The translations under genes were made by a program, and so were the position numbers. Of a DNA stretch of 34,811 nt, positions 28,084 to 34,213 are shown one piece after another. Numbering within the stretch: position 1 is the stretch's first letter; every line of letters starts with the position of its first letter. Below the pieces are notes generated by a model. That model ran no database searches. It was not told where the DNA came from and was given only the letters and a program-made list of their open reading frames with translations. The stretch lies in assembly GCA_964388035.1 (NCBI GenBank), contig CAYLZE010000049.1:1-34811 (forward strand). Direction: 5' to 3'. The stretch comes from an uncultured archaeon (lineage in GTDB: Archaea; Asgardarchaeota; Lokiarchaeia; Sigyniarchaeales; SOKP01).

Positions 28084-28782
28084 TTATACCTCCCGAATCA
28101 TTAATTTTTTAGAATCAGAAAGGCATGGAAAAAGGAGGGAATAATAAGGAGTTTTAATATAAAAAGTAAGTGATTTTTTAAAATAGGAAGAAGTAATAAG
28201 AAAAATCAGATTAGAATCTTTCTTATTTCTAAATTTAGATACTTTTTTAAGCTTATAATTATCAATTACTCTTGTAATTTTCTTTTTTGTCGAAAGGGAA
28301 AGAAAACTTTTATTCCATTCAAATTCATATCCAACTTTATTTTCATCATCCAATGGAGCACCTATCAATTCAGGGATGATTCCAAATATGTTATACTGGC
28401 CCAAATATTGAGGTTCGGATTCCTCTTGGATCTCCCGAATGCAATCTTCATCACTAAAATTTAAAAATGTCCTTTTCACAAAACAATGATAAAAACAAGC
28501 ATCAATATAACAATATAAATGAGCAAAAAGAATAATGTCAATTAATTGTCCAAGGCTAAATTGGAATGAATGATATTCTGCGGGCAAGAAGAACAATAGA
28601 TTAAGATAAGGAAGATCAGGAAAAAATATAGATTGGCCAGAAACAAAATAATTATTCAAATATGAAATTATAATTAAATCATCGACTAGAGAGAGATATA
28701 TGAAAGTGATTGGCAAGCAAGAAAAACTGAATATAAATATTAAAATTATTTTTGATAATCTATATTTCTCTTGAACAAGCAT
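28084..28782 (-). CDS. Hypothetical membrane-associated protein
   Basis: 232-aa non-overlapping ORF with N-terminal hydrophobic segments and an upstream GAGTGA. No family recognised. Confidence 0.6.
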   Translation of the reverse strand: MLVQEKYRLSKIILIFIFSFSCLPITFIYLSLVDDLIIISYLNNYFVSGQSIFFPDLPYLNLLFFLPAEYHSFQFSLGQLIDIILFAHLYCYIDACFYHCFVKRTFLNFSDEDCIREIQEESEPQYLGQYNIFGIIPELIGAPLDDENKVGYEFEWNKSFLSLSTKKKITRVIDNYKLKKVSKFRNKKDSNLIFLITSSYFKKSLTFYIKTPYYSLLFPCLSDSKKLMIREV

Positions 28783-29245: not shown

Positions 29246-31198
29246 TCATTCTTTTCTTAATTTTGGTTTAGCCATGATGTAGCCGCACTTCGGGCATATC
29301 AAATACATGCGGAATTCCTTCATGCTATTAAAGAAACTTGCACCAAGAATTCCTGCAGGAAGAGTAAAGAGAGAAACTCCAAGGAATGCAAAACAAATCG
29401 TAGCCAACCTTCCCGCGGTGGTTATTGGATAGATATCACCAAATCCAGTTGTTGTAAATGTTATTACTCCAAACCATAACGTTGCGGGAATATTTTTAAA
29501 TTTCTCGGGTTGAGCATCTTTTTCTAAATGATAAATTACTGTAGATGCAATAATGAGGAAAAGAACACAAAGGAGAAGAGTGGTAAAAAATTCCTTTTTC
29601 GAGTACTTGACGATTGAACCAATTACATCAAAAACTGCAAGAAAATGACCAATTTGAAAGACTACGAACATGCGGAGAGCTAACAAAATGGGAATCCCCA
29701 TTGGAAATGCAAAAAATAATAAGACCGTTAGATAAAGCGCTATGAGGTAGATCAAATCCATTACACCCAAAAAGCTTCGCATGTAATTTAACCTTCCCAA
29801 CTTTGGATCTTGGTATTTTTTATCATCAGAAGCAACCACACTCCAAATTCTTAGTATATATTCTATAGTAAATGCTGCTACTGAAATTAATAATACAACA
29901 AATATCACGATCCGATTCTCTTGATAAAGTATTGGATTAGTTTCTGCCATGATTGCTAAGACGTTTAACGTGATAAGGGTTGAAAAAAATACAAAAATGA
30001 AGAATTGTAGTAAGTTTCGAGGGTATCTAAATTCAAGGTTTTGAAAAAACATTTTTTGAATTATAAAAATATCATCTTCTGGAGATTCTTGAGTCTTTTC
30101 CACTTCTTCCAGTGCTTGTGTAATAATTTTTGGTTTTCTTCCTTTAGTTTTTGCGAAGAGATCTCGCAATAATTGATTCCGATCAATGACTTTATGACAA
30201 TTAGGACAAGCTTCAAATTGGGGGTTTCTTGATTGAATTTCATCCACAAACCCAGAACCTATGACGCTAGCGGGTAATAAGAACAACGTGATACCCATAA
30301 CGGAAATAACGGAAGAAACTAATTTGCCCATCGTTGTAACTGGTACAATCTCTCCATAACCTATAGTAAATAAATTTATCGCAGTAAACCACATTGAGCT
30401 AAATAAATTTGTAAAAACTGTTGGTTGAGCATCATGCTCTGCGAGAAATACTAACACGGATCCCAAAAACATTAAAAGCATTGATAACATGAAAGTTATT
30501 AACAATTCTTCTTTTTTGTCTTTAATTACCGAAAATATAACATCAAAGGATTGTGAATATCTTACTAACTTAAAAAATACTATCAAATGGAGAATTCTTA
30601 CCCATCCACGCTGCGGATTATCCATCGAAATTACCAGACCAAGAAAAATTGACACCACGCTAAATAAATCTACCATTGGAAGGAAATTAAACATGTATTT
30701 AAGGCGCTTAAATTTCACGTCTTTGTACTTAGGGTTAATATCACAGATCCAAACTCGTAAAATTAATTCCACACTAAAAATACATAAAGCAATTATTTCA
30801 ATAGTTTTTAGAACGAGAAAATAATCATTTTGAATGTAATCAACAGTTTCGAATAAAATGGTAAATCCACTGGCGAGTGATGTGATTATGAATAATATTG
30901 ATAAGAGGGTTGAGGGTAAATCTGAGAATCTTGTTAAATTTAATAAGGTATAAATTTTAATTTTAATTATTTGAAAAGATTTATTCGTCCTTTTAGTTCC
31001 TTGCGATGAAGAGATTAATTGACTTTCAGATTGTGCCATTAGTGAATTTTGGCTGACGATTTCCTTTTGGTTTGATTTCTTAGGGATATCTTTTAAATCA
31101 TTTAATTTTTTTAACGCGTTTTGATGAAATTTACTATTAATATGACTAAGGGAATCAGGATTTTCTAATTCTTTTCCACAAATTAAACATTTAGGCAA
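29246..31198 (-). CDS. Tandem-duplicated (2x6TM) voltage-gated-type potassium channel with N-terminal C2H2-like zinc finger
   Basis: Two ion-transport repeats (FSVELILRVW / FTIEYILRIW; EHDAQP / EKDAQP). Filters are TIGYGE and TTGFGD, and each repeat is followed by CPxC. The N-terminus reads CLIC-x11-HINSKFH. TTG start with GAGG upstream. Confidence 0.9.
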   Translation of the reverse strand: MPKCLICGKELENPDSLSHINSKFHQNALKKLNDLKDIPKKSNQKEIVSQNSLMAQSESQLISSSQGTKRTNKSFQIIKIKIYTLLNLTRFSDLPSTLLSILFIITSLASGFTILFETVDYIQNDYFLVLKTIEIIALCIFSVELILRVWICDINPKYKDVKFKRLKYMFNFLPMVDLFSVVSIFLGLVISMDNPQRGWVRILHLIVFFKLVRYSQSFDVIFSVIKDKKEELLITFMLSMLLMFLGSVLVFLAEHDAQPTVFTNLFSSMWFTAINLFTIGYGEIVPVTTMGKLVSSVISVMGITLFLLPASVIGSGFVDEIQSRNPQFEACPNCHKVIDRNQLLRDLFAKTKGRKPKIITQALEEVEKTQESPEDDIFIIQKMFFQNLEFRYPRNLLQFFIFVFFSTLITLNVLAIMAETNPILYQENRIVIFVVLLISVAAFTIEYILRIWSVVASDDKKYQDPKLGRLNYMRSFLGVMDLIYLIALYLTVLLFFAFPMGIPILLALRMFVVFQIGHFLAVFDVIGSIVKYSKKEFFTTLLLCVLFLIIASTVIYHLEKDAQPEKFKNIPATLWFGVITFTTTGFGDIYPITTAGRLATICFAFLGVSLFTLPAGILGASFFNSMKEFRMYLICPKCGYIMAKPKLRKE

Positions 31199-31420
31199 TT
31201 ATAATCCTCATTATTCTTTTAAATTAATTTTACTAGTAATGTAAATATTATTTAAATATTTCAAATTGGTATTAATTCGAAATTTACTCATAAAAAGATT
31301 GAATACGAGTGACAAATCCCCCATAAATTTAATAATCAAAATAAGAGAAGAGGAAAAAATTATTTCTCTAAATTAGTGGAAAGTAATTCTACATTATCAA
31401 CTTGATAATTTAAATTATCT

Positions 31421-33862
31421 TTATCTCCTAAATCTAATATCGCTATGGTTTATCAATTTATATACTCGTACTTTCAAGAAGTCCGTAATTAGAAATAGAA
31501 TGAAAGCATAAGCCCAAACAAATCCCGCTAATGCCCATCCCATAGGTGGTAACAAGAATCCATACACCGTGATTAACGTAGCAATAAATTGGGTGATTAC
31601 TATTGCTAAAAACAAAATCTTGGCCGGCCTTCTAGACCAGAACGGTCCTTTTGTTCTCGCTACGAAAATCGTCAAATGTCCTGCAACTGATAACTTTAAA
31701 TAAATGAAGGATTGCAATACGTCAGAACTTAAATGAAAAATTTCAAGTCCAATATAGAAAATTCCAAATGATGAAAATACACCTATTATTCCCAAATATG
31801 TTGCAATTGATAATAATTCTCTCATATTCCATCTTTGCGGTCTATTATCAAATCTAACCTTATCATATGAAATTGTGATAATCGGAATGTCATTCAAAAT
31901 TGCTAAAAGAACGATCATGAGGGCTGTTACAGGATAAAAACCGAAAATGATAATTGCAAGAGTAATAAAAAATAAAATTCGAAGGGTTTCTGCAATTCTA
32001 TAAATAGCATAATTTGTCATGCGTTGAAAAATTTTACGGCTTTCTTGTATTGCATCTATCGTTACCGAAATGCCAGGTTTTGTGAGGACTATATCCGCTG
32101 CCGATTTCGCAGCATCGGTAGATCCCGACACCGCTATTCCTGCATCGGCCTTCTTAAGTGCAGGAGAATCATTCACTCCATCTCCTGTCATACCGACAAC
32201 ATGACCTTTTTTCTGTAATAATTCTACTAAACGATATTTATGTTCAGGGAAGAATTGCGCAAATCCATCTGCAACCTCTACGATTCTTTTAGCATCATGA
32301 TCACTTAAATTTATGAAAGAAGATGCAGGTATGATATTTTGACCTAAATTTACTTTCCCTGCAATTTCTTTAGCGATTGCGACGTGATCCCCCGTAACCA
32401 TCTTGACATTGATTCCCATTGATTGTGCTGTCTTTATGGTCTCAGCAGAATCTTCTCGAGGAGGATCAAATAATGCTATTAGACCAACGAGATTCCATCT
32501 TCCCATTTCATCTGTTTTAATCACACCCAATGCTCTATATCCCCGACTTGCAAAATTATTGACAGTCGTATTAACCTCATTTTCCAGTGTTCCTTTATTA
32601 TAACATAGCGAAAGCATTACTTGGGGTGCTCCTTTGCTAACTTTTATGGGTTTACTATTTTTTATTAAAATACTTTCGGTTCGTTTGCTAATCGGATCAA
32701 AAGGAATAAATTTTTCTAACGTGAAATTTTTTAGATTATCTTGAACTTCCTTAAAACGCTTTCCTTCATTGATAATGGCATTATCGATAGGATCTTGATC
32801 CTCTTCTCTAGATGCAAGAATAGAATAGAGTAAAACATCATTTTGATTAAAATCGTCATAAGTATGAATATCGCCCACAGTTAATTCATTTTTAGTTATA
32901 GTTCCAGTTTTATCAGAGCATAAAACATCCATGCTTGCCAACTCTTCAATTGCTACTAACTTGCTTACTATTGCTTCTTTCCTTGCCAATGCCATGGCGC
33001 CAATAGCTAAGGTCACTGAAAGTACTGCGGGCAATGCAGCTGGAATTCCAGATACCATCAAAATTAAAGCGAATTGAAGGGTTGTGAGAAGTCTTTCATG
33101 TCTAAACAAAGAAACTATAAAAATTATTAAAACCATGGCGATGGCGAGTGTTATCAAATAATTTCCTATCTTTAAAACAGCTCGCTGAAAATGGCTCACA
33201 GTTTTAGCTTCTCCAACAAGTTTGGCAGTTTTTCCAAAAAAAGTATTAAGTGCAGTATTTGTCACGAGTGCGTCCATTTCTCCTTGTTTTACGATAGTAC
33301 TTGCATAAACTTCATCCATTTTATGTTTTTCTACAGGTAAAGATTCTCCTGTTAAAGCGGACTCATCTAATAATAAATAATCCCCTTCTACGGGTTTAAT
33401 ATCAGCAGGAACAATATCCCCAAGACGAACACGTATATAATCACCGGGCACTAATTCACGGGAGGGCAATACACACCATTTTCTGTCCCTTAAAACACGG
33501 GCATGTAGGGCTAATCGTTGCTTTAATAAAGCAATTGCATTATCAGCTTTATGTTCCTCCCAAAACCGGATTATTGCATTAACTAATAGCAACGATAAAA
33601 TTATTATGAAGTCATCTAATTGCTGATCTATGATTGACATTATTACAGCAGCTTCAATCATCCAAGGAATAGGTCCCCAGAAATTTTTCAAAAGTTTAAA
33701 AATTGCTCTTTCTTTCTTTTCTGGGATTTCATTCGGCCCAAATTGTTCAAGACGTTCAATAGCTTCTTCTGATGTTAATCCTTTCTTAAGTTCAGATAAT
33801 TCACAAACCAATTCGGTTTCATGTCCTTTCACATCTCTAGATTTAATTTTTATAGAACTCAT
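31421..33862 (-). CDS. P-type ATPase, P3A plasma-membrane proton-efflux type
   Basis: TGES, GIPAALP, DKTGT, KGAP, DPPR, TGD, GDGVND and the P3A-diagnostic AILND. FWGPIPWMIEAA near the N-terminus. ATG at 33862 preferred to TTG at 33877. Confidence 0.93.
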   Translation of the reverse strand: MSSIKIKSRDVKGHETELVCELSELKKGLTSEEAIERLEQFGPNEIPEKKERAIFKLLKNFWGPIPWMIEAAVIMSIIDQQLDDFIIILSLLLVNAIIRFWEEHKADNAIALLKQRLALHARVLRDRKWCVLPSRELVPGDYIRVRLGDIVPADIKPVEGDYLLLDESALTGESLPVEKHKMDEVYASTIVKQGEMDALVTNTALNTFFGKTAKLVGEAKTVSHFQRAVLKIGNYLITLAIAMVLIIFIVSLFRHERLLTTLQFALILMVSGIPAALPAVLSVTLAIGAMALARKEAIVSKLVAIEELASMDVLCSDKTGTITKNELTVGDIHTYDDFNQNDVLLYSILASREEDQDPIDNAIINEGKRFKEVQDNLKNFTLEKFIPFDPISKRTESILIKNSKPIKVSKGAPQVMLSLCYNKGTLENEVNTTVNNFASRGYRALGVIKTDEMGRWNLVGLIALFDPPREDSAETIKTAQSMGINVKMVTGDHVAIAKEIAGKVNLGQNIIPASSFINLSDHDAKRIVEVADGFAQFFPEHKYRLVELLQKKGHVVGMTGDGVNDSPALKKADAGIAVSGSTDAAKSAADIVLTKPGISVTIDAIQESRKIFQRMTNYAIYRIAETLRILFFITLAIIIFGFYPVTALMIVLLAILNDIPIITISYDKVRFDNRPQRWNMRELLSIATYLGIIGVFSSFGIFYIGLEIFHLSSDVLQSFIYLKLSVAGHLTIFVARTKGPFWSRRPAKILFLAIVITQFIATLITVYGFLLPPMGWALAGFVWAYAFILFLITDFLKVRVYKLINHSDIRFRR

Positions 33863-34213
33863 AATACCGATTTGCAATGTTTTAAATTTTATTGGAAAAT
33901 TAATTAGATTAATCTAATAAAGTTAATGTCTCATTTTTATTTGTAAAGAATTTGAACATAATTGGTTAATTTATTATTCAAATTTTATAAAATAAAGTTT
34001 ACGAGGAAAAATATTATATCTAAACCATTCTTATTAAGAGAAATGATGAAATTTCTCCCGGAATTTTATTTTCTCGCTAAATTATGAAATTATAATTCAT
34101 CATGATTGGTATAAATGAATTTAGAAATGGAGAACTTAAATGTAAAAAGATTTTTGGGGTTATTTATTATAAGGTTAAAATATATAAAATAATAAAATTA
34201 TAAGGATGATCAT

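Follow-up and report, generated by a model that had tools for sequence, protein, structure and literature searches.

The concatenation of six-transmembrane (6TM) units, from one to two and then to four per chain, is the textbook route to the two-pore channels (TPC) and to the Nav and Cav channels, and it is treated as a eukaryotic innovation. The filters of TPC are of a non-K+ (Na+/Ca2+) type and contain no GYG. One account derives multi-domain channels from intragenic duplication (PMC5150636), and tandem Kv-like channels with a 2x6TM build and K+ filters are known from dinoflagellates, oomycetes and chlorarachniophytes (PMC7576140). According to a 2026 paper, tandem K+ channel architectures were not detected in prokaryotes (PMC13715775). 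Here we analyze a stretch of 34,811 nucleotides from an uncultured Asgard archaeon (contig CAYLZE010000049.1, hereafter the window), in which positions 29246..31198 of the reverse strand encode a protein of 650 amino acids (aa) with two 6TM repeats, each carrying a K+ filter.

This gene belongs to a family of prokaryotic 2x6TM K+ channels that was previously undescribed in the literature searched, and in which the first step of concatenation was taken again, independently. In that literature the two-repeat design is confined to eukaryotes and viruses. We found no description of such a channel in the full-text literature searched, which mostly excludes subscription journals, and channels are not mentioned in a structural-modeling survey of Asgard proteomes (PMC12962969). 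A possible earlier listing in a survey of Asgard transporters was considered and set aside: the 'VIC' match in MK-D1 is a different protein, with eight transmembrane segments (TC 1.A.1.31.1, E 4e-7; PMC7997004).

Two unequal repeats in one chain

The channel gene (29246..31198, reverse strand) is one uninterrupted frame of 650 codons, with a TTG start, no internal stops and its stop codon at 29246-29248, and no other long frame lies there. It is present as a single copy in the 5.47-Mb genome, and its product is a 100% self-match to cluster P0002. Pfam assigns two Ion_trans domains (PF00520; E 3.6e-38, 131.6 bits against a cut-off of 25) and two Ion_trans_2 K+ pore domains (PF07885; E 1.2e-26). 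An AlphaFold2 (AF2) model of the single chain, computed from a family alignment of 33 sequences (mean predicted local distance difference test score, pLDDT, 82.1; predicted template modeling score 0.72), contains twelve transmembrane helices and two pore helices, with S4-S5 linkers that are helical and a short beta-hairpin at each of two CPxC motifs; each half has its own S1-S6 and pore helix. A first-pass annotation of the window had read two full 6TM repeats in one polypeptide, and this is borne out by the intact gene, the paired Ion_trans domains and the model, in which either repeat can fold as a 6TM unit.

Repeat 1 (residues 77-341; 30176..30970, on the reverse strand like all features of the gene) comprises the S1-S4 voltage-sensor domain, the S4-S5 linker, S5, a pore helix, S6 and a CPNC hairpin, with AF2 helices between residues 94 and 324. 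A basic cytoplasmic linker (residues 342-385; 30044..30175), modeled at lower confidence, joins it to repeat 2 (residues 386-650; 29249..30043), which consists of a pre-S1 helix, S1-S6, a pore helix and a CPKC hairpin, and whose best Pfam stretch covers residues 402-624. The two repeats are 30% identical over 231 columns (E 7e-42). Their selectivity filters, TIGYGE in repeat 1 (residues 278-283; 30350..30367) and TTGFGD in repeat 2 (residues 583-588; 29435..29452), lie exactly where the annotation had placed them. Both match the K+ signature T-x-G-[YF]-G-[DE], which is nearly invariant across the family. The claim that the two filters of one chain are non-identical extends to the family alignment, where the first filter is GYG throughout and the second reads GFG in crown-group members but GYG in those that branch deeper. 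The P-A-[GS] hinge behind the filter is kept in the two-repeat family, as is the charge-transfer center of both sensors (F141/E144/D177 in repeat 1, F443/E446/D481 in repeat 2). Identity within each repeat clade is about 50%, and the alignments point to clear purifying selection on the filters, the hinge, the pore helices and the charge-transfer centers.

The S4 helices have been reduced to different degrees. In single-repeat relatives, described below, S4 is basic at six positions. Of these, three to four remain in repeat 1 (R, R/H, neutral, K, R) and one to two in repeat 2, where His is always last. In the window protein, S4 of repeat 1 (residues 197-214; 30557..30610) carries R, H, V, K and R at every third position, K210 and R213 being invariant in the family. 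The charge-poor S4 of repeat 2 (residues 503-519; 29642..29692) reads L, R, V, Q and H, with H518 invariant in the family and K515 replaced by Q in the window protein. Past S6 each repeat has a cysteine knuckle, CPNC in repeat 1 (30197..30208; C331 and C334, within a predicted beta-hairpin at 328-339) and CPKC in repeat 2 (29285..29296; C635 and C638, within a predicted beta-hairpin at 632-643), and the chain terminates 12 residues past CPKC. Every core fused member has CPxC at the matching position in both repeats (in the window protein, CPNC at 331 with its filter at 278, and CPKC at 635 with its filter at 583). The four cysteines are invariant in the family alignment, together with H518, K210, R213, D177 and D481. 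A divergent branch of the family (P0043, P0250 and P0252) has neither CPxC, and its repeats still favor, in order, the first- and second-repeat profiles introduced below; in P0043, S4 of repeat 2 is fully charged and the second filter is TMGFGD.

Compared as a whole chain, the model matched TPC2 (8ouo_A, Z 21.2, 485 residues aligned), TPC3 (6v1q_A, Z 20.4, 445 residues aligned, 6.7 A) and AtTPC1 (Z about 20); overall the TPC matches had Z scores of 19-21 over 445-485 residues, took in both repeats and showed 11-15% identity. One repeat alone superimposed on Kv4.2 with Z 17 and a root-mean-square deviation of 2.4-2.7 A over about 240 residues. Foldseek placed KCNQ2, KCNQ5 and KCNQ1 on top, at 29-31% identity, and a sequence search of the PDB was led by KCNQ (Kv7; E 6.5e-26 for KCNQ2, which both repeats match), followed by Kv4, Kv2 and Kv1, with no TPC among the best 60 matches. 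C-terminal helices A-D of the KCNQ type were found in neither the channel sequence, nor Pfam, nor the model, and the model for MVP-type archaeal K+ channels (NF040645; hyperpolarization-activated) scored 61.6 bits against a cut-off of 300. The predicted chain has the build of a TPC protomer made from Kv/KCNQ-like modules. The TPC likeness proposed in the annotation thus extends to the architecture of the chain, where both repeats superimpose (Z about 21), and not to family membership, given the low identity and the K+ filters.

Ancestry, proposed mechanism and rival explanations

A search of 5.8 billion proteins returned about 40 clusters of 550-700 aa with full query coverage and 36-65% identity, and seven further divergent two-repeat members came from a profile search of 1.84 billion representatives. 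The total is about 45 two-repeat clusters, drawn from JGI, NCBI, ENA and Logan assemblies. Source names on the roughly 40 clusters are all Asgard, mostly 'Promethearchaeota', with one each from Hermod-, Hod- and Thorarchaeota. Among 400 species genomes of the phylum (protein search, E <= 1e-10), 18 have a match, the window genome included, and these fall in two families of one order: 16 of the 134 other genomes of the family to which the window belongs and 1 of the 14 genomes of a sister family. No two-repeat gene was found among the 400 genomes outside these two families, and no single-repeat family member was found in any of them, every channel-part match being the two-repeat gene. Fifteen related genomes hold a stop-free frame of two-repeat length. 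Three genome matches are imperfect: one ends at a contig end, one reads through two TAA codons upstream of the frame, and one consists of the N-terminal finger alone. A relative in the same genus carries the fused form at 68% identity, and the fusion recurs in 17 other Asgard genomes and about 45 clusters, which answers the annotation's own concern that relatives might lack it. The two-repeat family is real, old within one Asgard order, and patchy; being patchy even within its own family, the gene is dispensable.

A search among shorter proteins uncovered a large family of single-repeat 6TM K+ channels (more than 400, of 260-290 aa), which are 33-38% identical to either repeat (E about 1e-50). 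Their hosts include methanogens (Methanoregula, Methanothrix), Methanofastidiosia, Theionarchaea, Dehalococcoides, Bacteroidota and others, and their database labels read 'ion transporter', 'voltage-gated potassium channel' and, once, 'KQT subfamily'. One CPxC, mostly CPHCG, sits about 53 residues past the filter in 118 of the 120 relatives checked. In the ESM Atlas only single-repeat clusters were found, one of them with Zn_ribbon_3 on 16% of its members. In a careful maximum-likelihood tree, all first repeats form one clade (r1, 99/97) and all second repeats another (r2, 97/91). These two clades mirror each other in their internal branching, and both are nested in the single-repeat family in every tree. 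The careful tree groups r1, r2 and one single-repeat protein at 83/82, and an approximately unbiased (AU) test finds r1 and r2 compatible with a single clade (p-AU 0.46). The two-repeat gene is a derived offshoot of the single-repeat CPxC family. Within it r1 and r2 fall together, which is consistent with one fusion or one duplication; a single event would be the simplest reading, and most probably it was a tandem intragenic duplication in place. In Methanoregula genomes (L019-L024), the S4 of a single-repeat subgroup is reduced to R, R, W, K, H, its filter reads TIGYGD and its knuckle CPHC, the losses being those of the Asgard repeats; this subgroup is possibly the closest single-repeat kin, or possibly a case of parallel change.

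The profile search also matched many proteins with two to six repeats, of which the named ones are eukaryotic, for example transcripts of Diphylleia rotans. Each repeat was scored against separate r1 and r2 hidden Markov model profiles. In all Asgard-type members the first repeat favors the r1 profile and the second the r2 profile, by 26-223 bits, whereas in eukaryote-type multi-repeat proteins the two scores mostly differ little, without r1/r2 alternation. A tree of 99 rows joins the repeats of each eukaryote-type multi-repeat group with one another and never places them inside r1 or r2. Because these repeats cluster by protein, outside both clades, the tree and the profile scores support an Asgard duplication independent of, and not ancestral to, those of TPC, Nav/Cav and the protist tandem channels. 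The annotation had proposed such an independent duplication step, and the nesting of the repeats in a prokaryotic single-repeat family agrees with it. An Asgard origin of the eukaryotic multi-domain channels is not shown by the two-repeat family.

Several further multi-repeat proteins came to light in these searches. P0243, P0249, P0253, P0259 and P0367 are GC-rich, lie on short contigs and have two to four 6TM repeats with the K+ signature and no CPxC; related multi-repeat proteins occur in the protist Diphylleia rotans (EukProt), and in a quick tree all of these fall within or near the prokaryotic CPxC family, each with its own internal duplication. A four-repeat Asgard form was sought among longer proteins and rejected, the only candidate being P0242, which is GC-rich, has non-K+ filters and is probably eukaryotic. 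P0242 is 1155 aa long, has four Ion_trans repeats and a KCNQ-like S2-S3 motif, and is the sole match above 1138 aa.

How might such a channel work? On the basis of its architecture, two chains would form one pseudo-four-fold, K+-selective pore in which GYG and GFG strands alternate. Repeat 1 would be the main voltage sensor, reduced but plausible, with its R, R/H, neutral, K, R series and an F-x-x-E and D charge-transfer center. Because repeat 2 has lost most gating charges and has a His fixed at the last S4 position, it is probably a weak voltage sensor or none at all, like one of the unequal sensors of TPC, and it may have been re-purposed as a proton- or metal-sensitive element acting through His518. 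A lone CPxC knuckle would be unable to bind zinc and may represent half of a zinc-ribbon-type site. In the dimer, the knuckles of neighboring repeats probably pair, much as in the Rad50 zinc hook, so that two Zn(Cys)4 clasps would form beneath the gate. With such clasps, even the ancestral homotetramer would have been a dimer of dimers, and would thereby have lent itself naturally to the two-repeat fusion.

Could the two-repeat chain have arisen in another way? There is a negligible chance that the two-repeat chain stems from faulty assembly or gene calling, or from recent read-through between adjoining genes: the idea has no backing except that Kv-type subunits of prokaryotes are expected to consist of one 6TM unit, and it would have to account for a stop-free fused frame with a conserved linker that recurs, at identities of 35-68%, in 15 more species genomes and, across four data sources, in about 45 clusters. 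A fusion of two already diverged single-repeat paralogues, formerly a heteromeric pair, would replace duplication in place; we regard it as unlikely. It draws on a 100-row tree that makes two single-repeat proteins from the Methanoregula group the sisters of r2 (84), on the observation that these proteins, like r2, have a His at the last S4 position and have lost the third charge, and on the fact that each repeat is slightly nearer to the single-repeat proteins (34-35% identity) than to the other repeat (30%). However, a careful tree search on a larger set of taxa brought r1 and r2 together (83/82) and left the Methanoregula group outside, and the AU test does not reject the r1 plus r2 clade. 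Moreover, the Methanoregula loci have no adjoining second channel gene, no single-repeat member was found among the 400 Asgard genomes, and faster divergence after duplication also accounts for the identity figures.

The remaining alternatives concern the relation to eukaryotic channels and whether the protein conducts at all. A duplication common to the Asgard channel and eukaryotic TPC, Nav/Cav or protist tandem K+ channels, of which the present gene would be a surviving intermediate, might be suspected from the whole-chain fold, which is closest to TPC, from the Asgard host, and from the 99-row tree, where eukaryote-type multi-repeat K+ channels share one weakly supported (85) region with r1, r2 and the Methanoregula single-repeat proteins. 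The prospects of this explanation are nevertheless very slim, since identity to TPC is low and TPC are missing from the best PDB sequence matches, the K+ filters are unlike those of TPC, the repeats of the multi-repeat proteins tested group with each other and show no r1/r2 alternation, and the gene is limited to one Asgard order and patchy even there. The same unresolved group (85), together with KCNQ as the best solved relative, gives a slim chance to a broader proposal, in which the CPxC-tailed archaeal lineage was also the source of eukaryotic KCNQ-like and protist multi-repeat channels, either because Asgard archaea and early eukaryotes concatenated one inherited subunit in parallel or through a shared first duplication. 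Finally, the protein could be a degenerate, sensor-like or regulatory membrane protein that does not conduct K+. S4 charges are reduced in both repeats, the distribution is patchy and the window variant has an extra N-terminal finger, but both filters are canonical and nearly invariant, and the hinge, pore helices and charge-transfer centers are under clear purifying selection, which makes a non-channel improbable.

Taken together, we consider it very probable that the gene encodes a real, conserved, concatenated K+ channel that arose in an ancestor of one order of Lokiarchaeia-type Asgard archaea, came from the single-repeat CPxC family independently of eukaryotes, and has specialized halves. 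Several points weigh against this view. Support for r1 and r2 as sister groups is only moderate (83/82), and a single-repeat protein joins them in a trichotomy; the first tree, of 100 rows, put r2 with Methanoregula single-repeat proteins that share its last-position S4 His. The trees were built without TPC, KCNQ, MVP, dinoflagellate or oomycete tandem-channel sequences. The gene is patchy even inside its own family (16 of 134 genomes), and S4 of repeat 2 in the window protein has only one basic residue. What the analysis establishes is that the gene is intact, that its repeats are homologous and its fusion conserved, where the repeats fall in the trees and what fold is predicted; conduction, K+ selectivity, the dimer stoichiometry, the roles of the two sensors and zinc binding are properties that we infer.

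Start site, N-terminal finger and neighboring genes

The window protein opens with a C2H2-type finger (C4/C7/H19/H25; residues 1-30; 31109..31198, reverse strand), which is zf-met-like by alignment and modeled with a pLDDT of about 90. Within the two-repeat family it is restricted to a subclade (clusters P0001, P0003, P0010 and P0016). The placement of the TTG start is supported by sequence context, because the conserved finger opens 2-3 residues past the start in three other clusters and because GAGG sits 7 nucleotides upstream of the TTG. The upstream stretch 31199..31260 (reverse strand) probably holds the gene's own expression signals, a putative set made up of this GAGG (31206-31209) and an AT-rich, TATA-like stretch at about 31242-31260. 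The same finger was also seen in another genome of the same family, where an open reading frame (ORF) of 122 codons (L018:1483-1848, forward strand; protein P0396) joins it, through a lysine-rich linker, to a histone fold of the archaeal type (CBFD_NFYB_HMF, E 1.2e-9). In P0396 the finger is 47% identical to channel residues 1-73, and its zf-met match (E 0.006) is below threshold. Since it also heads this histone-fold ORF, the finger is a movable module. On the opposite strand within the channel gene, an antisense ORF of 111 codons (30489-30824, forward strand) is in all likelihood a product of chance in the AT-rich sequence.

Directly upstream of the channel, on the same strand, lies a gene for a plasma-membrane proton-efflux P-type ATPase (P3A; 31421-33877; TIGR01647 at 1033 bits, above its cut-off of 615). 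The juxtaposition of an electrogenic H+ pump and a K+ channel is functionally suggestive. Downstream, also on the reverse strand, an ORF of 232 aa (28084-28782) has no Pfam match and no counterpart in related loci. A conserved operon was considered and rejected, as the H+-ATPase and the downstream ORF adjoin the channel in none of 16 related loci (1.5-kb flanks).

Comparison with known channels

With the two-repeat family, the first step of concatenation can be seen in prokaryotes, in naturally occurring and conserved proteins that are small (560-650 aa) and have neither introns nor cytosolic domains, and its living single-repeat relatives are available for comparison. The consequences that theory predicts for concatenation are already present, namely unequal voltage sensors, unequal filters and co-evolving halves. 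The family could be a tractable system for structural and electrophysiological study of how pseudo-symmetry evolves. It also points to a possible zinc-clasp mechanism of assembly, none having been described for Kv channels in the literature searched.

Among described channels, TPC1-3 resemble the Asgard protein in having two 6TM repeats per chain, in the protomer fold and in unequal voltage sensors of which only one is well charged. The Asgard protein differs in its K+ filters, in lacking EF-hands and long cytosolic linker domains, and in its separate duplication. KCNQ/Kv7 channels share with the Asgard repeats the S2-S3 motif 'EY..R(I/L)W ... GRL' and the segment 'LPAGILGSGF' after S6, but are single-repeat tetramers with C-terminal helices A-D for calmodulin binding and coiled-coil formation. 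The protist tandem Kv-like channels come close in several respects, with separate clades for first and second repeats, about 30% identity and unequal S4 charge; they are, however, eukaryotic, and no prokaryotic tandem form was reported with them (PMC7576140). K2P channels, including the viral Kpov (PMC13715775), resemble the dimer proposed here in pairing chains with tandem pores and share the GYG/GFG filter asymmetry, yet have four transmembrane helices and two pores per chain and no voltage-sensor domains.

The comparison with the single-repeat CPxC family is the most direct. Its members have the S2-S3 motif, the P-A-G hinge, the GxGF segment after S6 and the position of the CPxC in common with both Asgard repeats, but each chain is one module of about 265 aa with a full six-basic S4 ladder, and presumably forms homotetramers. 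The Asgard protein, by contrast, joins two modules in 650 aa, with reduced and unequal S4 helices, a GFG second filter, and N or K in place of H in the CPxC.

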